From Escherichia coli (lineage in GTDB: Bacteria; Pseudomonadota; Gammaproteobacteria; Enterobacterales; Enterobacteriaceae), in NCBI RefSeq assembly GCF_003018255.1, contig NZ_CP027440.1: 64,000 nucleotides of DNA. The stretch is one strand, 5' to 3'. The translations under genes were made by a program, and so were the position numbers. The notes under the pieces are model-generated. The model was not told the DNA's origin. It did not search any database and saw only the letters and a program-made list of their open reading frames with translations. Every line of letters begins with the position of its first letter. The first letter of the stretch is position 1. This document shows positions 3,132 to 43,558 of the stretch, one piece after another.

Positions 3132-5074
3132 CGCCCTTGCTCGAATTAAAGGATATTCGTCGCAGCTATCCTGCCGGTGATGAGCAGGTTGAGGTGCTGA
3201 AGGGCATCAGCCTCGATATTTATGCCGGTGAGATGGTGGCGATTGTTGGCGCTTCGGGTTCCGGTAAATCGACCCTGATGAATATTCTCGGCTGTCTGGA
3301 TAAGGCCACCAGCGGCACCTATCGCGTCGCCGGTCAGGATGTTGCCACGCTGGACGCCGATGCGCTGGCGCAACTGCGCCGCGAGCATTTCGGCTTTATT
3401 TTCCAGCGTTACCATTTGCTTTCGCATTTAACCGCCGAGCAGAACGTTGAAGTACCCGCCGTCTATGCCGGTCTTGAGCGGAAACAGCGGCTGCTTCGCG
3501 CCCAGGAGTTACTGCAACGACTGGGGCTGGAAGACCGTACAGAGTATTACCCGGCACAGCTTTCGGGTGGCCAGCAACAGCGCGTCAGCATCGCGCGGGC
3601 ATTGATGAACGGCGGTCAGGTAATTCTTGCCGATGAACCGACCGGCGCACTGGACAGCCATTCTGGCGAAGAGGTGATGGCGATCCTGCATCAGCTGCGC
3701 GATCGCGGGCATACGGTGATTATCGTCACCCACGATCCGCAGGTTGCTGCTCAGGCCGAGCGGGTGATCGAAATTCGCGACGGCGAAATTGTGCGCAATC
3801 CTCCCGCCATTGAAAAAGTGAATGTTGCTGGCGGGACGGAACCTGTTGTCAACACGGCGTCTGGCTGGCGGCAGTTTGTCAGCGGTTTTAACGAGGCGCT
3901 GACGATGGCATGGCGGGCGCTGGCAGCGAATAAAATGCGTACTTTACTGACCATGCTGGGGATTATTATCGGTATTGCGTCGGTGGTTTCCATTGTCGTG
4001 GTGGGTGACGCCGCCAAACAAATGGTGCTGGCGGATATTCGTTCTATTGGTACGAATACTATTGATGTCTATCCCGGGAAAGATTTTGGCGATGACGATC
4101 CGCAATATCAGCAGGCGCTGAAGTACGACGACTTAATCGCCATCCAAAAACAACCGTGGGTCGCTTCAGCCACACCTGCCGTCTCGCAAAACCTGCGCCT
4201 GCGTTATAACAATGTTGATGTTGCTGCCAGTGCCAATGGCGTGAGCGGCGATTATTTTAATGTCTATGGCATGACCTTCAGTGAAGGAAACACCTTTAAT
4301 CAGGAGCAGCTGAACGGTCGTGCGCAGGTGGTGGTGCTCGACAGTAATACTCGCCGCCAGCTTTTCCCCCATAAAGCAGATGTGGTTGGCGAGGTGATTC
4401 TGGTCGGCAATATGCCCGCCAGAGTCATTGGTGTGGCGGAAGAAAAACAGTCGATGTTTGGTAGCAGTAAAGTGCTGCGTGTCTGGCTACCTTACAGCAC
4501 GATGTCCGGGCGAGTTATGGGCCAGTCGTGGCTGAACTCCATTACTGTCAGGGTGAAAGAAGGATTTGACAGCGCTGAGGCGGAACAGCAACTCACGCGT
4601 TTACTTTCACTGCGCCACGGTAAGAAGGATTTCTTTACCTGGAACATGGACGGCGTCTTGAAAACCGTTGAAAAGACCACACGTACTTTACAACTGTTTC
4701 TGACGCTGGTGGCGGTGATTTCGCTGGTGGTGGGCGGTATTGGTGTAATGAATATTATGCTGGTGTCAGTGACCGAGCGGACGCGGGAAATTGGCATTCG
4801 CATGGCTGTAGGTGCGCGAGCAAGCGATGTTTTGCAACAGTTCCTGATCGAAGCCGTACTGGTTTGCCTGGTCGGTGGCGCGTTGGGAATAACACTGTCA
4901 CTGTTAATTGCTTTCACCTTACAGCTTTTCTTACCCGGCTGGGAGATTGGTTTTTCACCGTTGGCGCTGCTGCTGGCGTTTCTCTGCTCGACGGTCACCG
5001 GGATTTTATTTGGCTGGTTACCCGCACGAAATGCGGCACGACTGGATCCAGTAGATGCTCTGGCACGAGAGTAA
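3128..5074 (+). CDS. macB: Macrolide ABC exporter ATPase/permease MacB
   Basis: 648 aa; Walker [10 protein letters not shown] and ABC signature LSGGQQQR in translation; C-terminal FtsX-like TM region. Confidence 0.95.
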
Positions 5075-5693: not shown

Positions 5694-6014
5694 ATGGGTA
5701 AAACGAACGACTGGCTGGACTTTGATCAACTGGCGGAAGAAAAAGTTCGCGACGCGCTAAAACCGCCATCTATGTATAAAGTGATATTAGTCAATGATGA
5801 TTATACTCCGATGGAGTTTGTTATTGACGTGTTACAAAAATTCTTTTCTTATGATGTAGAACGTGCAACGCAATTGATGCTCGCTGTTCACTACCAGGGG
5901 AAGGCCATTTGCGGAGTCTTTACCGCTGAGGTTGCAGAAACCAAAGTGGCGATGGTGAACAAGTACGCGAGGGAGAATGAGCATCCATTGCTGTGTACGC
6001 TAGAAAAAGCCTGA
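5694..6014 (+). CDS. clpS: ClpA adaptor ClpS
   Basis: 106 aa; immediately upstream of clpA. Confidence 0.95.
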
Positions 6015-6044
6015 ATGCAGGCATAAAAATTGGGGGAGGTGCCT

Positions 6045-8321
6045 ATGCTCAATCAAGAACTGGAACTCAGTTTAAATATGGCTTTCGCCAGAGCGCGCGA
6101 GCACCGTCATGAGTTTATGACCGTCGAGCACTTGTTACTGGCGCTGCTCAGTAACCCATCTGCCCGGGAGGCGCTGGAAGCGTGCTCTGTGGATTTGGTT
6201 GCGCTCCGTCAGGAACTGGAAGCCTTTATTGAACAAACCACACCCGTTCTGCCTGCCAGTGAAGAGGAGCGCGACACACAGCCGACGCTGAGTTTTCAGC
6301 GTGTACTGCAACGTGCGGTCTTCCATGTCCAGTCCTCCGGTCGCAATGAGGTTACCGGTGCAAACGTTCTGGTCGCTATCTTTAGCGAACAGGAGTCGCA
6401 GGCGGCATATCTGTTGCGCAAACATGAAGTCAGCCGTCTCGATGTGGTGAACTTTATCTCTCATGGCACGCGTAAAGACGAGCCGACACAGTCTTCTGAT
6501 CCTGGCAGCCAGCCAAACAGCGAAGAACAAGCTGGTGGGGAGGAACGTATGGAGAATTTCACGACGAACCTGAATCAGCTTGCGCGAGTGGGCGGAATCG
6601 ACCCACTGATTGGTCGTGAGAAGGAGCTGGAGCGTGCTATTCAGGTTCTCTGCCGTCGCCGTAAAAACAACCCGCTGCTGGTGGGGGAATCTGGTGTCGG
6701 TAAAACCGCGATTGCGGAGGGGCTTGCATGGCGAATTGTTCAGGGCGATGTGCCGGAAGTGATGGCTGACTGTACGATTTACTCTCTCGATATCGGTTCT
6801 CTGTTAGCGGGCACAAAATATCGCGGCGACTTTGAAAAACGTTTTAAAGCGTTGCTCAAGCAGCTGGAGCAAGACACTAACAGCATCCTGTTTATTGATG
6901 AGATCCACACCATTATCGGTGCGGGTGCAGCGTCTGGTGGCCAGGTCGATGCAGCTAACCTGATCAAACCGTTGCTCTCCAGCGGTAAAATTCGCGTAAT
7001 TGGTTCGACAACCTATCAGGAGTTCAGCAACATTTTCGAGAAAGACCGTGCTCTGGCGCGTCGCTTCCAGAAAATTGATATTACTGAACCGTCAATCGAA
7101 GAAACTGTTCAAATCATCAATGGCCTGAAACCGAAGTATGAAGCGCACCACGACGTGCGTTATACCGCAAAAGCGGTGCGTGCAGCGGTAGAGCTGGCGG
7201 TGAAATACATTAACGATCGTCATCTGCCGGATAAAGCCATTGACGTTATCGACGAAGCGGGCGCTCGCGCACGCCTGATGCCGGTAAGCAAACGCAAGAA
7301 AACCGTTAATGTGGCGGATATTGAGTCCGTGGTGGCCCGTATTGCGCGCATTCCAGAGAAGAGTGTTTCGCAGAGTGACCGCGATACCCTGAAAAACCTC
7401 GGCGATCGCCTGAAAATGCTGGTCTTCGGTCAGGATAAAGCCATTGAGGCGCTGACTGAAGCCATTAAGATGGCGCGTGCAGGTTTAGGTCACGAACATA
7501 AACCGGTCGGTTCGTTCCTGTTTGCCGGTCCTACCGGGGTCGGGAAAACAGAGGTGACGGTACAGCTTTCGAAAGCGTTGGGCATTGAGCTTCTGCGCTT
7601 TGATATGTCCGAGTATATGGAACGCCATACCGTCAGCCGTCTGATTGGTGCGCCTCCGGGATACGTTGGTTTTGATCAGGGCGGTTTGCTGACTGATGCG
7701 GTCATCAAGCATCCACATGCGGTGCTGCTGCTGGACGAAATCGAGAAAGCGCACCCGGACGTGTTCAATATTCTGTTGCAGGTGATGGACAACGGTACGC
7801 TGACCGATAACAACGGACGCAAAGCGGACTTCCGTAACGTGGTATTGGTGATGACCACCAACGCTGGGGTACGAGAAACTGAGCGTAAATCGATTGGTCT
7901 TATCCACCAGGACAACAGTACCGATGCGATGGAAGAGATCAAGAAGATCTTTACGCCGGAGTTTCGTAACCGTCTCGACAACATTATCTGGTTCGATCAT
8001 CTCTCCACCGACGTGATCCATCAGGTAGTGGATAAATTCATCGTCGAGTTGCAGGTTCAGCTGGATCAGAAAGGTGTTTCTCTGGAAGTGAGCCAGGAAG
8101 CGCGTAACTGGCTGGCCGAGAAAGGTTACGACCGGGCAATGGGCGCACGTCCGATGGCGCGTGTCATCCAGGACAACCTGAAAAAACCGCTCGCCAACGA
8201 ACTGTTGTTTGGTTCGCTGGTGGACGGCGGTCAGGTGACGGTTGCGCTGGATAAAGAGAAAAATGAGCTGACTTATGGATTCCAGAGTGCACAAAAGCAC
8301 AAGGCGGAAGCAGCGCATTAA
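6045..8321 (+). CDS. clpA: ATP-dependent Clp protease ATP-binding subunit ClpA
   Basis: 758 aa from [10 protein letters not shown]; two AAA+ modules with Walker A GESGVGKT and GPTGVGKT. Confidence 0.95.
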
Positions 8322-36544: not shown

Positions 36545-38305
36545 TTATTTTGCCCAGAATGCTGCTTTGGCGCGCTGCAGCTTTTCGTAGGCCTTCAACA
36601 ACGACTGATGTGCAGCAAACGCGTGCAGATCGCTATCTACTGGTTGCAAACCATAAAACGCCGCTTCGCCGCTCATTGCCGCACTGGCGGCTTCCACGGC
36701 ATCTGCGCCGTACATGCGAACAAACGCATTCAGATATTGCAGCGGCTGGCGATCTTCTTCCTGCGCCAGTAATAACAACGTTTGCAGGCAGCGATAATAG
36801 TTGGCGCGTTCCGGGCTGAATACCGATGAGTTAAACTCCATCGTCCATTCGGTCCAGACCAGAGCCTGTTCCAGATCGCCACCAGCCAGCGCCAGCATGG
36901 CTTTTAATTCACCGATACGCAGGGTGTACCAACCGTTATCCGACCCGGTCGCCAGACCCAACAGCTCACGCACGCGGGTAAAGTCATCAAAACCTTCTTC
37001 ATCCAGTTGCTCGATGAGGTTCAGGTAATCTTCTTTTTCCCACTCGCTGCCTGGTAACGAAAGAATCGTTTCACGTAAATGGCTGCCCATACTGTTATTC
37101 GCCAGCCACAGATCTTCAGCCGGATAAATATCGGACATGCCAGGCACGATAATTCGGCAAGCATAAACGCCCAGATGCTCGTAATCGGCAATATAAACTT
37201 CTTTATCTTCTTTGTTGAAGATAGCCATCAGCGTAGCAAACTCTTCTTCCGTAGTGCCGGAGAAATTCCAGTCCACAAACGGATAATCGGCATCCTGCTT
37301 GAACAGGTCCCAGGAGATTAAACCGCTGGAATCGATAAAGTGCGTTTCGAGGTTGGTATGTTCAGCAACTTCTTCATCATCGAAGGTTGGCGGAGTAAAC
37401 ACATCCAAATCTTTCAGGCCACGACCTTGCAGCAGCTCGGTCACGGTACGTTCCAGTGCTACGCCAAAATCAGGATGCGCACCGAAAGAGGCAAAGCAGG
37501 TACCGTTAGCAGGATTGAACAGTACCACGCAAATCACCGGATACTGGCCGCCAAGCGAACCATCATAAGCAAAGATTGGGAAACCTTCTGCTTCCAGCGT
37601 TTCGATGGCTTCAACCACCGCTGGGTAACGCGCCAGCACGTCTGCCGGGATTTCCGGCAAGCTGATGCTTTCAGCAATAATGCGGTTTTTCACGTAGCGT
37701 TCGAAAACTTCGGACAACCCCTGAACGCGTGCTTCGTTACGGGTATTGCCAGCGGACATACCGTTAGAAACATACAGGTTACCAATGATATTCATCGGAA
37801 TATAAACGGTCTGATTATCAGACTGACGCGTAAACGGCAGACCGCAAATACCACGATCTTCGTTACCGGATTGCAGGTCAATCAGCATACTGCCGGCCAG
37901 TTCATTCTCCGGATCGTAAAATGCGCGCAGACGGTCATCGAGCAGCCCTTCTGGCACATCGTCATTTTCGCTCAGTGGGAACCATTTTTCGTTGGGATAA
38001 TGCACGAACGGACCGTTGGCGATGGTTTCGCCCAGCCAGAAATCAGCAAAAAAGTAGTTGGTTGAGAGACGCTCGAAATATTCACCGAGTGCAGAAGCCA
38101 GCGCCGCTTTTTTGGTTGCGCCTTTACCGTTGGTAAAACACAGTGCGCACTCTTTGTCGCGAATATGTACAGACCAGACGTTAGGCACCGGATTCAGCCA
38201 GGAGGCCTCTTCAATCTGAAAGCCGAGGTCTGAAAGTTTTTGCTGGAAGCGAGCGATGGAATCTTCCAGTGCGGCATCTTTGCCGGGGATAAATGTTTGC
38301 GTCAT
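36545..38305 (-). CDS. ycaO: YcaO-domain protein (ribosomal protein S12 methylthiolation accessory factor)
   Basis: 586 aa from MTQTFIPGKDAALEDSIARF. Confidence 0.9.
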   Translation of the reverse strand: MTQTFIPGKDAALEDSIARFQQKLSDLGFQIEEASWLNPVPNVWSVHIRDKECALCFTNGKGATKKAALASALGEYFERLSTNYFFADFWLGETIANGPFVHYPNEKWFPLSENDDVPEGLLDDRLRAFYDPENELAGSMLIDLQSGNEDRGICGLPFTRQSDNQTVYIPMNIIGNLYVSNGMSAGNTRNEARVQGLSEVFERYVKNRIIAESISLPEIPADVLARYPAVVEAIETLEAEGFPIFAYDGSLGGQYPVICVVLFNPANGTCFASFGAHPDFGVALERTVTELLQGRGLKDLDVFTPPTFDDEEVAEHTNLETHFIDSSGLISWDLFKQDADYPFVDWNFSGTTEEEFATLMAIFNKEDKEVYIADYEHLGVYACRIIVPGMSDIYPAEDLWLANNSMGSHLRETILSLPGSEWEKEDYLNLIEQLDEEGFDDFTRVRELLGLATGSDNGWYTLRIGELKAMLALAGGDLEQALVWTEWTMEFNSSVFSPERANYYRCLQTLLLLAQEEDRQPLQYLNAFVRMYGADAVEAASAAMSGEAAFYGLQPVDSDLHAFAAHQSLLKAYEKLQRAKAAFWAK

Positions 38306-38434
38306 GAAAATCACTTTAGTCGTACGGAAAGCGCGCAATAATACGGGTTTTATCTCAAAGGCGCTATCACCGCCGCCATGCCGATGATCTGTTGACTATG
38401 CTTTTAGCGGATAAACCACGATAAGAGCATATAA

Positions 38435-39127
38435 ATGAAGGCGTTCGATCTCCACCGTATGGCATTTGATAAAGTGCCTTTTGATTTCCTTGGCGAAGTG
38501 GCACTACGTAGTCTTTATACCTTTGTACTGGTTTTTTTGTTCCTCAAAATGACCGGAAGACGCGGTGTGCGGCAGATGTCGCTTTTTGAAGTGTTAATCA
38601 TTCTGACGCTGGGATCAGCGGCGGGAGATGTGGCGTTTTATGATGATGTGCCGATGGTCCCGGTACTTATCGTCTTTATTATTCTGGCGTTGTTATACCG
38701 CCTGGTAATGTGGTTGATGGCGCACAGTGAAAAACTGGAAGATCTTCTGGAAGGCAAGCCGGTTGTCATTATTGAAGATGGCGAGCTGGCCTGGTCGAAA
38801 CTCAATAACTCCAACATGACGGAATTTGAGTTCTTTATGGAGCTACGATTGCGCGGTGTAGAGCAGTTGGGGCAAGTACGTCTGGCGATTCTCGAAACCA
38901 ACGGGCAAATCAGTGTCTATTTCTTTGAAGATGACAAGGTGAAACCGGGCTTACTTATTTTACCCAGTGACTGTACTCAGCGTTACAAAGTGGTACCCGA
39001 GTCGGCGGACTATGCCTGCATTCGTTGCAGTGAAATCATTCATATGAACGCGGGGGAAAAACAATTATGTCCGCGCTGTGCAAATCCAGAATGGACGAAG
39101 GCAAGTCGGGCAAAACGGGTGACGTGA
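38435..39127 (+). CDS. ycaP: DUF421-family inner membrane protein YcaP
   Basis: 230 aa; N-terminal TM helices. Confidence 0.85.
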   Translation: MKAFDLHRMAFDKVPFDFLGEVALRSLYTFVLVFLFLKMTGRRGVRQMSLFEVLIILTLGSAAGDVAFYDDVPMVPVLIVFIILALLYRLVMWLMAHSEKLEDLLEGKPVVIIEDGELAWSKLNNSNMTEFEFFMELRLRGVEQLGQVRLAILETNGQISVYFFEDDKVKPGLLILPSDCTQRYKVVPESADYACIRCSEIIHMNAGEKQLCPRCANPEWTKASRAKRVT

Positions 39128-39325
39128 CAGTAAAAACATCGGCTTTTTGCTAATAATCCGAGAGATTCTTTTGTGTGATGCAAGCCACATTTTTGCCCTC
39201 AACGGTTTTACTCATTGCGATGTGTGTCACTGAATGATAAAACCGATAGCCACAGGAATAATGTATTACCTGTGGTCGCAATCGATTGACCGCGGGTTAA
39301 TAGCAACGCAACGTGGTGAGGGGAA

Positions 39326-40414
39326 ATGGCTCAAATCTTCAATTTTAGTTCTGGTCCGGCAATGCTACCGGCAGAGGTGCTTAAACAGGCTCAACAGGAA
39401 CTGCGCGACTGGAACGGTCTTGGTACGTCGGTGATGGAAGTGAGTCACCGTGGCAAAGAGTTCATTCAGGTTGCAGAGGAAGCCGAGAAGGATTTTCGCG
39501 ATCTTCTTAATGTCCCCTCCAACTACAAGGTATTGTTCTGCCATGGCGGCGGTCGCGGTCAGTTTGCTGCTGTTCCGCTGAATATTCTCGGTGATAAAAC
39601 CACCGCAGATTATGTTGATGCCGGTTACTGGGCGGCAAGTGCCATTAAAGAAGCGAAAAAATACTGCACGCCTAATGTCTTTGACGCCAAAGTGACTGTT
39701 GATGGTCTGCGCGCGGTTAAGCCAATGCGCGAATGGCAACTCTCTGATAATGCTGCTTATATGCATTACTGCCCGAATGAAACCATCGACGGTATCGCTA
39801 TCGACGAAACGCCAGACTTCGGCAAAGATGTGGTGGTCGCCGCCGACTTCTCTTCAACCATTCTTTCCCGTCCGATTGACGTCAGCCGTTATGGCGTGAT
39901 TTACGCTGGCGCGCAGAAAAATATCGGCCCGGCTGGCCTGACAATCGTCATCGTTCGTGAAGATTTGCTGGGCAAAGCGAATATCGCGTGTCCGTCGATT
40001 CTGGATTATTCCATTCTCAACGATAACGACTCCATGTTTAACACGCCGCCGACATTTGCCTGGTATCTGTCTGGTCTGGTCTTTAAATGGCTGAAAGCGA
40101 ACGGCGGTGTAGCTGCAATGGATAAAATCAATCAGCAAAAAGCAGAACTGCTGTATGGGGTGATTGATAACAGCAATTTCTACCGCAATGACGTGGCGAA
40201 AGCTAACCGTTCGCGGATGAACGTGCCGTTCCAGTTGGCGGACAGTGCGCTTGACAAATTGTTCCTTGAAGAGTCTTTTGCTGCTGGCCTTCATGCGCTG
40301 AAAGGTCACCGTGTGGTCGGCGGAATGCGCGCGTCTATTTATAACGCCATGCCGCTGGAAGGCGTTAAAGCCCTGACAGACTTCATGGTTGAGTTCGAAC
40401 GCCGTCACGGCTAA
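39326..40414 (+). CDS. serC: Phosphoserine aminotransferase
   Basis: 362 aa [25 protein letters not shown]. Confidence 0.95.
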
Positions 40415-40433
40415 TGCCGAAATTTTGCTTAAT

Positions 40434-40460
40434 CCCCACAGCCAGCCTGTGGGGTTTTTA
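40434..40460 (+). terminator. Intercistronic hairpin/attenuator between serC and aroA
   Basis: ccccacag-ccagc-ctgtgggg followed by TTTTT. Confidence 0.75.
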
Positions 40461-40484
40461 TTTCTGTTGTAGAGAGTTGAGTTC

Positions 40485-41768
40485 ATGGAATCCCTGACGT
40501 TACAACCCATCGCTCGTGTCGATGGCACTATTAATCTGCCTGGTTCCAAGAGCGTTTCTAACCGCGCTTTATTGCTGGCGGCATTAGCACACGGCAAAAC
40601 AGTATTAACCAATCTGCTGGATAGCGATGACGTGCGCCATATGCTGAATGCATTAACAGCGTTAGGGGTAAGCTATACGCTTTCAGCCGATCGTACGCGT
40701 TGCGAAATTATCGGTAACGGCGGTCCATTACACGCAGAAGGTGCCCTGGAGTTGTTCCTCGGAAACGCCGGAACGGCAATGCGCCCGCTGGCGGCAGCTC
40801 TTTGTCTGGGTAGCAATGATATTGTGCTGACTGGTGAGCCGCGTATGAAAGAGCGCCCGATTGGTCATCTGGTGGATGCGCTGCGCCTGGGCGGGGCGAA
40901 GATCACTTACCTGGAACAAGACAATTATCCGCCATTGCGTTTACAGGGCGGCTTTACTGGCGGCAACGTTGACGTTGATGGCTCCGTTTCCAGCCAGTTC
41001 CTCACCGCACTATTAATGACTGCGCCTCTTGCACCGGAAGATACGGTGATTCGTATTAAAGGCGATCTGGTTTCTAAACCTTATATCGACATCACACTCA
41101 ATATGATGAAGACGTTTGGTGTTGAAATTGAAAATCAGCACTATCAACAATTTGTCGTAAAAGGCGGGCAGTCTTATCAGTCTCCGGGTACTTATTTGGT
41201 CGAAGGCGATGCATCTTCGGCTTCTTACTTCCTGGCAGCAGCAGCAATCAAAGGCGGCACTGTAAAAGTGACCGGCATTGGACGCAACAGTATGCAGGGT
41301 GATATTCGCTTTGCTGATGTGCTGGAAAAAATGGGCGCGACCATTTGCTGGGGCGATGATTATATTTCCTGCACGCGGGGTGAACTGAACGCTATTGATA
41401 TGGATATGAACCATATTCCCGATGCGGCGATGACCATTGCCACGGCGGCGTTATTTGCAAAAGGCACCACCACGCTGCGCAATATCTATAACTGGCGTGT
41501 TAAAGAGACCGATCGCCTGTTTGCGATGGCAACAGAACTGCGTAAAGTTGGTGCGGAAGTAGAAGAGGGGCACGATTACATTCGTATCACTCCACCGGAA
41601 AAGCTGAACTTTGCCGAGATCGCGACATACAATGATCACCGGATAGCGATGTGTTTCTCGCTGGTGGCGTTGTCAGATACACCAGTGACGATTCTTGATC
41701 CCAAATGCACGGCCAAAACATTTCCGAATTATTTCGAGCAGCTGGCGCGGATTAGCCAGGCAGCCTGA
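40485..41768 (+). CDS. aroA: 3-phosphoshikimate 1-carboxyvinyltransferase (EPSP synthase)
   Basis: 427 aa [35 protein letters not shown]. Confidence 0.95.
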
Positions 41769-41937
41769 ATGAACAACGTGCAATAAATAGCCAAATCTTT
41801 CTTTATCAAAACGTCGGCACATTGCCGGCGTTTTTTTTTCGGACCTTGTGAGTCATTTTGATTAATGGTAGCGTCGCTTGTCAATGTAAGTTATTGATAC
41901 ATAATATTTATATATGATTAATCAACGGATGATTCAC

Positions 41938-42702
41938 ATGAAGAATACTAAATTACTGCTGGCGATTGCGGCCTCTGCAGCATTACTGACAGGGTGTCAA
42001 AATACCCACGGTATTGATACCAATATGGCTATCAGCTCAGGTTTAAATGCCTATAAAGCAGCAACGTTAAGCGATGCTGATGCAAAAGCGATTGCCAATC
42101 AGGGCTGTGCCGAAATGGACAGCGGCAATCAAGTCGCAAGCAAATCCAGCAAGTACGGGAAACGTCTGGCAAAAATCGCCAAAGCATTGGGTAACAATAT
42201 TAATGGCACGCCGGTCAACTATAAGGTTTATATGACCAGCGACGTCAACGCATGGGCGATGGCGAACGGTTGTGTTCGTGTCTACAGTGGCCTGATGGAC
42301 ATGATGAACGACAACGAAATTGAAGGCGTTCTGGGTCATGAACTGGGCCACGTCGCGTTGGGTCACTCGCTGGCTGAAATGAAAGCTTCTTATGCGATCG
42401 TTGCCGCACGTGATGCGATTTCCGCTACCAGCGGTGTGGCTTCCCAGCTTTCTCGCTCACAATTAGGTGATATCGCAGAAGGCGCGATCAATGCTAAATA
42501 CTCCCGCGATAAAGAGTCCGAAGCAGATGATTTCTCCTTTGATCTGTTGAAGAAACGTGGCATCAGCACCCAGGGGCTGGTTGGCAGCTTTGAAAAATTG
42601 GCCAGCCTGGATGGCGGTCGTACCCAGTCCATGTTTGATTCTCACCCACCATCAACAGAGCGTGCGCAACACATCCGTGATCGTATCGCCTCTGGTAAGT
42701 AA
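41938..42702 (+). CDS. ycaL: M48-family metallopeptidase lipoprotein YcaL
   Basis: 254 aa; lipobox LLTGC; HELGH zinc motif. Confidence 0.85.
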   Translation: MKNTKLLLAIAASAALLTGCQNTHGIDTNMAISSGLNAYKAATLSDADAKAIANQGCAEMDSGNQVASKSSKYGKRLAKIAKALGNNINGTPVNYKVYMTSDVNAWAMANGCVRVYSGLMDMMNDNEIEGVLGHELGHVALGHSLAEMKASYAIVAARDAISATSGVASQLSRSQLGDIAEGAINAKYSRDKESEADDFSFDLLKKRGISTQGLVGSFEKLASLDGGRTQSMFDSHPPSTERAQHIRDRIASGK

Positions 42703-42874
42703 ATCATTGTCATCTTTCGGGCTGGTCTTCTGCCAGCCCGCTATAATTGCGCAATAAATCCCCATCTGAATACAGACAAAACTGGTTTTTGCACACAACG
42801 TTAACGATTTGTGGCGTCGGCGCGTATAATGCGCGCGGTTATGTTAACGGTACGCCTGTTTTAAGGAGATAAAG

Positions 42875-43558
42875 ATGACGGCAATTGCCCCGGTTATTAC
42901 CATTGATGGCCCAAGCGGTGCAGGGAAAGGCACCTTGTGTAAGGCTATGGCGGAAGCGTTGCAATGGCATCTGCTGGACTCGGGTGCAATTTATCGCGTA
43001 CTGGCACTGGCGGCATTACATCACCATGTTGATGTTGCATCGGAAGATGCGCTGGTGCCGCTGGCATCCCATCTGGATGTACGTTTTGTGTCGACCAATG
43101 GCAATCTGGAAGTGATCCTCGAAGGGGAAGATGTCAGTGGCGAAATTCGTACTCAGGAAGTGGCGAATGCAGCTTCACAAGTCGCGGCATTCCCACGCGT
43201 TCGTGAAGCATTATTGCGTCGCCAACGCGCGTTTCGCGAATTACCAGGCCTGATTGCCGATGGCCGTGACATGGGAACGGTGGTATTCCCTGATGCGCCA
43301 GTGAAAATTTTCCTTGACGCCTCCTCGGAAGAACGTGCGCATCGCCGCATGCTACAGTTGCAGGAGAAGGGCTTTAGTGTTAACTTTGAGCGCCTTTTGG
43401 CTGAGATCAAAGAACGCGACGACCGCGATCGTAACCGAGCGGTAGCGCCACTGGTTCCGGCAGCCGATGCTTTAGTGTTGGATTCCACCACCTTAAGCAT
43501 TGAGCAAGTGATTGAAAAAGCGCTACAATACGCGCGCCAGAAATTGGCTCTCGCATAA
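42875..43558 (+). CDS. cmk: Cytidylate kinase
   Basis: 227 aa; P-loop GPSGAGKGT. Confidence 0.95.

Follow-up and report, generated by a model that had tools for sequence, protein, structure and literature searches.

A conserved hairpin and U-tract between serC and aroA of Escherichia coli as a probable partial Rho-independent terminator

Introduction

The rplL-rpoB attenuator of the rplKAJL-rpoBC operon is an intra-operon partial terminator that lowers the dosage of a downstream gene expressed from a shared promoter. Closer to the locus considered here are the serC-aroA operons of enteric bacteria: that of Salmonella was reportedly established by Hoiseth and Stocker in 1985, and that of E. 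coli was reportedly sequenced by Duncan and Coggins in 1986. Using RNase protection, Man, Pease and Winkler are said to have found in 1997 that 80–90% of serC transcripts are single-gene mRNAs, and to have ascribed these to likely Rho-independent termination between serC and aroA. The internal terminator described in the 1980s–90s for the serC(pdxF)-aroA operon of E. coli K-12 is the same locus as the one analysed below.

A bicistronic serC-aroA mRNA is accepted in the current literature. We found no description of the internal terminator in open-access full text, and it is on record independently, since a serC-only transcription unit of RegulonDB is cited by Yan et al. (PMC6131387). The serC-aroA terminator is already known, and the observation followed up here, made on unannotated DNA, is correct but ordinary; an internal terminator of the textbook type raises no new question. 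What we add is the covariation of the hairpin across the family and a match, at the level of single nucleotides, between the predicted U-run and a published RNA 3' end.

Results

We analysed a stretch of 64,000 nucleotides of E. coli chromosomal DNA (contig NZ_CP027440.1), referred to as the window, in which serC and aroA are flanked by ycaP upstream and ycaL downstream (Table 1). serC runs through its stop codon to 40414 and aroA opens with an ATG at 40485, leaving a spacer of exactly 70 nt (40415-40484), the very boundaries that an earlier, sequence-only reading of this DNA had given. The same reading had described an 8-bp GC-rich stem, a 5-nt loop and TTTTT within the spacer, and every detail is correct: CCCCACAG pairs with CTGTGGGG at eight of eight positions by Watson-Crick pairing (six G-C pairs), the intervening loop is CCAGC, and TTTTTATTTC lies directly 3' of the stem. 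The U-tract TTTTTATTT begins at the first base after the stem and has U at eight of its nine positions. The element has the make-up of an intrinsic terminator, a G+C-rich stem-loop (stem of ~5-14 bp, loop of 3-8 nt) with an adjacent U-tract.

The energy of the hairpin alone is -13.4 kcal/mol. It is present in the minimum-energy folds of the 70-nt spacer and of the 141-nt context, and forms with a probability of 0.88-0.96 regardless of how much upstream RNA is added to the fold. Judged by energy, the 70-nt spacer as a whole stands out only moderately (z = -2.0), an equally good fold being reached by 7 of 200 shuffles. A strict scan of both strands of the 64-kb window for terminators (stem perfect over 8 bp or more and with 6 or more G/C, loop of 3-8 nt, five or more consecutive T within 1 nt) returned four sites, whereas dinucleotide-preserving shuffles held 0.01 on average, with one site in each of 2 out of 200. 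The other three sites all lie on the minus strand, at 63192-63174, 32000-31977 and 5110-5090. A bidirectional serC terminator was considered and rejected: read on the minus strand, the hairpin leads into ATTAAGCAAAA and not into a T-run.

Table 1. Features of the serC-aroA locus, in window coordinates.
Feature	Position	Strand	Basis
serC-aroA operon transcription start site (TSS)	39251	+	MG1655 957578 carried onto the window; SMRT-Cappable-seq
serC, phosphoserine/phosphohydroxythreonine aminotransferase, 362 aa	39326..40414	+	ORF list; RefSeq annotation of identical DNA
Linker from serC stop codon to stem, 19 nt, unconserved	40415..40433	+	Majority fraction 0.57
Putative terminator hairpin: 5' arm CCCCACAG 40434-40441, loop 40442-40446, 3' arm CTGTGGGG 40447-40454	40434..40454	+	Folding, covariation
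U-tract TTTTTATTT	40455..40463	+	RNA 3' end mapped at 40459 (MG1655 958786)
aroA Shine-Dalgarno-like GAGAG, 8 nt 5' of ATG, putative ribosome-binding site	40472..40476	+	Conservation
aroA, EPSP synthase, 427 aa	40485..41768	+	ORF list; RefSeq annotation of identical DNA
Operon-distal terminator 3' of aroA: 12-bp stem, 3-nt loop, 9-T run	41808..41839	+	-16.1 kcal/mol

We infer the position of the TSS in the window from ATGATAAAACCGATAGCC, which is identical in the MG1655 locus (L083) and in the window (ORF from 39234). The sole sigma-70-like consensus match upstream of serC, ATGATA-17-AATAAT at 39234-39262, spans this published start site and extends downstream of it, and is thus not the promoter that operates here; the true -10 element is probably GATAAA/TGATAA, just upstream of the TSS. 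At the other end of the operon, an A-run 5' and the 9-T run 3' of the 12-bp stem make the aroA-distal terminator look bidirectional, and this terminator leaks as well, as a serC-aroA-ycaL transcript has been reported in long reads (PMC6131387).

Yan et al. 2018 (PMC6131387) used SMRT-Cappable-seq to obtain full-length primary transcripts from E. coli MG1655, a strain with a spacer 100% identical to that of the window. The pertinent row of their Supplementary Data 1 reads 'NC_000913.3 957578 958786 forward 1145 347 419 32 872 novelTTS NA NA b0907': 1,145 reads start at TSS 957578, 347 end at the transcription termination site (TTS) 958786, 32 end in the next 50 bp and 419 extend at least 50 bp past the TTS, with a median extension of 872 bp (PMC6131387). 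In the MG1655 spacer, 958786 falls on the final T of the TTTTT run, which is 40459 in the window; this published 3' end is accompanied by serC-only and longer RNAs from one TSS. Two operon variants share this TSS in Supplementary Data 2, b0907 alone, which is scored 'same' as an existing RegulonDB unit, and b0907|b0908|b0909, i.e. serC-aroA-ycaL (PMC6131387); the latter bears out the proposed co-transcription of serC and aroA. No aroA-only variant is among the matches listed in the supplements of that study (PMC6131387). A consensus scan, which could miss a weak promoter, found no sigma-70-like site in the spacer, and the aroA message is therefore presumably supplied by polymerases that read through the hairpin.

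As computed from the published counts, read-through amounts to ~52% of the reads reaching the serC site. The SMRT-Cappable-seq library was size-selected for fragments > ~1 kb (PMC6131387). Such a selection probably under-counts the 1.2-kb terminated RNA, and the read-through of 52% is therefore likely an upper bound. This long-read value exceeds the 10-20% that RNase protection is said to have given. As for the culture concerned, the table block holding the serC row also contains metE with 5,666 reads, and in Supplementary Data 4 serC (b0907) has two transcriptional contexts in M9 but a single one in rich medium (PMC6131387), on which grounds the row probably stems from the M9 culture. The Term-seq supplements of Adams et al. 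2021 hold no entry for serC, for aroA or for coordinates 9587xx-9588xx, and the Rho termination regions of that study include none at this place. This dataset is without any entry for the serC-aroA operon and, since aroA with its obvious distal terminator is absent from it too, is silent and not contradictory.

A 301-nt query around the hairpin, 100% identical to strain JNE23-011, was matched in 5,425 of 5,426 complete E. coli genomes, at a median of 1 place per genome, i.e. as a single copy. The spacer is at least 99% identical to that of the window in 4,056 records and differs at 1-3 positions in the remainder; in the one variant examined, both differences fall in the upstream linker. Records labelled plasmid account for five of the matches to the serC-aroA junction, and a single complete genome gave none. 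A separate observation concerns E. coli P31_YH1_02.21 (locus L082, NZ_CP085063.1), which carries two copies of IS200C in the same orientation (3655-4375 and 5745-6400) at sites equivalent to ~40462 and ~41839 of the window, each directly 3' of a terminator T-run (GGGGTTTTTATT for serC, GGCGTTTTTTTT for aroA). The first copy, with hairpins of its own, sits between the serC promoter and aroA, an arrangement that calls the source of aroA expression there into question.

For a comparison beyond the species, SerC was scanned in one genome per species and the closest 80 loci were retained, all from Enterobacteriaceae and with 86-99% protein identity. Both aroA 3' of serC and a hairpin at the same relative position were found in 80 of 80 loci; the spacer measures 66-85 nt, with one of 123 nt. 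The 80 loci yielded 79 distinct spacers, and in their alignment 96% of the stem cells are paired, versus 44-60% after shifting the 3' partner by 1-3 columns. Double (compensatory) changes occur in four of the eight stem pairs (at pair 39-54, for instance, 49 sequences have G-C and 25 have A-U), and the covariation score was reached by 0 of 500 shuffles. The RNAalifold consensus of the 79 sequences recovered the terminator helix alone. The minimum-energy fold of the E. coli spacer also has a weak pairing of GCUUAAU (40427-40433) with GUUGAGU (40476-40482) that would reach into the aroA ribosome-binding region; it is absent from this consensus and was discarded. Taken together, the comparative data point to selection on the structure across Enterobacteriaceae.

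Primary sequence is conserved unevenly along the spacer. The mean majority fraction is 0.88 in the 5' arm, 0.91 in the 3' arm, 0.91 in the U-tract and 0.91 in the GAGAG...ATG block of aroA, where G58 A59 G60 A61 are invariant in the 79 sequences, versus 0.57 in the upstream linker, 0.53 in the loop and 0.63 in the part of the spacer that follows. The hairpins have a median energy of -14.7 kcal/mol (-8.0 to -18.5), and 69 of the 79 sequences have at least 7 U within 9 nt 3' of the stem. Between stop codon and stem the linker nearly always measures 14-22 nt and in no species less than 14 nt, a constant distance which, going by an estimate of the ribosome footprint, would put the stem out of reach of a ribosome terminating serC translation. 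Such a pattern of conservation is what one would expect of a terminator followed by a translation start.

Five loci count against this picture. The sole species with a 123-nt spacer, the metagenome-assembled Enterobacteriaceae bacterium UBA5654 (L075, 3590-3712), has no T-run adjacent to its homologue of the terminator hairpin (CCCCGCAG...CTGCGGCGG, then ACAATTTTT), and the T-runs of four further loci are weak or interrupted (L065, L068, L073 and L077: CTTCC, TTTCC, TTTCTGCTT). The UBA5654 spacer contains an extra 12-bp inverted repeat, CTTCAGGTCGCAGTCAATGCGGCCTGAAG, upstream, and its terminator may be weakened or replaced. The four loci come from the most divergent genera (Enterobacteriaceae LSJC7, bran_bin.7; Mangrovibacter) and have a strong hairpin with a different stem sequence (CCCGCGCC/GGCGCGGG; CCCCGTACC/GGTGCGGGG).

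Discussion

In our view the hairpin between serC and aroA is, with a probability of roughly 0.9, an intra-operon Rho-independent terminator that is constitutive and partially efficient. This conclusion draws on the structure and its covariation, on where the RNA 3' end maps, and on terminated and read-through primary transcripts that coexist from one TSS. The claim of partial intrinsic termination made by the sequence-only reading is upheld on three sides, by a hairpin and T-run conserved across 80 species with compensatory changes, by 347 reads that stop compared to 419 that read through, and by the serC-only and serC-aroA-ycaL transcripts that share one TSS. Polymerase starting at the single serC promoter would transcribe serC and, 20 nt past its stop codon, the G+C-rich 8-bp hairpin with UUUUUAUUU behind it. 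Some of the polymerases would release the transcript where the U-run ends, yielding a 1.2-kb serC-only mRNA, and the remaining ones would continue to produce serC-aroA and some serC-aroA-ycaL mRNA, with aroA being translated from its own conserved ribosome-binding site ~30 nt further downstream. Rho would probably not be needed for this. The outcome is a serC message in excess of the aroA message from one promoter, and the ratio of the two mRNAs would presumably carry through to the ratio of the enzymes. The hairpin had also been credited with setting the aroA:serC ratio, and here the claim needs softening: the hairpin contributes to that ratio, of which it need not be the sole determinant.

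In this arrangement one promoter serves two demands, that for serine and vitamin B6 via SerC and that for aromatic amino acids via AroA. The practical value is small and concerns the re-engineering of serC/aroA for vitamin B6, serine or aromatics, where it counts that about half or more of the transcripts stop before aroA.

The best surviving alternative, itself unlikely, is a conditional attenuator, whose efficiency varies with the medium, with serC translation or with a trans-acting factor, such that the aroA:serC ratio is adjusted. It could account for the two transcriptional contexts of serC in M9 compared to one in rich medium, and condition-dependent read-through is seen at other internal terminators, prs-dauA and dapA-bamC (PMC6131387). 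The difference between the media is, however, explicable by lower expression of the operon in rich medium. The RNA itself also speaks against such regulation: the consensus fold of the 79 sequences contains no conserved alternative helix, no upstream 6-mer competes with either arm of the hairpin, whose formation probability stays high throughout, and the upstream linker is unconserved. Nor did an Rfam scan of 38000-43000 with E up to 1 return any match. From its usual geometry, the ribosome can be estimated to cover ~10 nt past the stop codon. Since no species has a linker shorter than 14 nt, a ribosome that finishes serC should, on this estimate, miss the stem. The evidence argues against a classical antiterminator. 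We hold it slightly less improbable, though still doubtful, that read-through shifts in some way with growth condition, promoter activity or the coupling of serC translation to the polymerase; if it did, the aroA:serC ratio could be changed without a second promoter.

Quite improbable is a second alternative, in which the hairpin acts mainly as a 3'-end stabiliser or processing barrier akin to REP elements, with trimming back to the hairpin protecting the serC mRNA and little termination taking place. Exonuclease trimming of a longer RNA can also give a 3' end at a hairpin, and 3'-end mapping of the kind used here cannot tell it from termination; moreover, many read-through reads end inside aroA (at the median extension given above), so that decay intermediates do exist. 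Yet a pure stabiliser has no need of a U-run, and the T-run is as conserved as the stem. The mapped 3' end, too, lies at the end of the U-run and not at the base of the stem, and the element, being single-copy in each genome, is not a REP-type repeat. The 3' end thus more plausibly arises by termination than by trimming.

We give very little credence to the notion that the 3' end of the serC mRNA serves as the Hfq-binding module of a small RNA derived from the 3'UTR. A hairpin with a U-tail is the generic Hfq 3' module, and GcvB regulates the serC-aroA operon, though it does so via the serC 5'UTR, and an aroA translational fusion is unaffected by it. The serC 3'UTR is only 45 nt long; its 19-nt single-stranded part is unconserved and so offers no conserved seed, the mapped tail has only 5 U, and no Rfam family corresponds to it. 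Least of all can the element be a chance palindrome or a DNA-level protein-binding site without a role in RNA, a reading favoured by the modest z-score of the spacer energy and by nothing else, and effectively refuted by the shuffle scan (0.01 occurrences expected per window), by compensatory changes that preserve pairing and not sequence, and by the RNA 3' end that maps there.

The terminator best supported by these considerations, partial and constitutive, falls in line with described systems. We find no difference from the serC(pdxF)-aroA terminator of E. coli K-12, which is the same locus in another strain, the spacer being 100% identical. In Salmonella enterica subsp. diarizonae and arizonae (L019, L040), the orthologous operon has the hairpin CCCCACGG...CTGTGGGG with a T-run in the same place; it differs from that of E. 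coli by one G-U stem pair and another loop and, in arizonae, by GTTTT instead of TTTTT. The textbook rplL-rpoB attenuator is alike in being a partial terminator inside an operon, and differs in its longer spacer and its RNase III processing site. Akin to the serC site, T1 of rpsU-dnaG-rpoD, likewise a partial intrinsic terminator, follows the first gene in an operon of mixed function: at rpsU (b3065) 125 reads end and 264 read through, compared to 347 and 419 at serC, although the rpsU site is a known RegulonDB terminator, whereas the serC site is labelled 'novelTTS' in the comparison by Yan et al. (PMC6131387).
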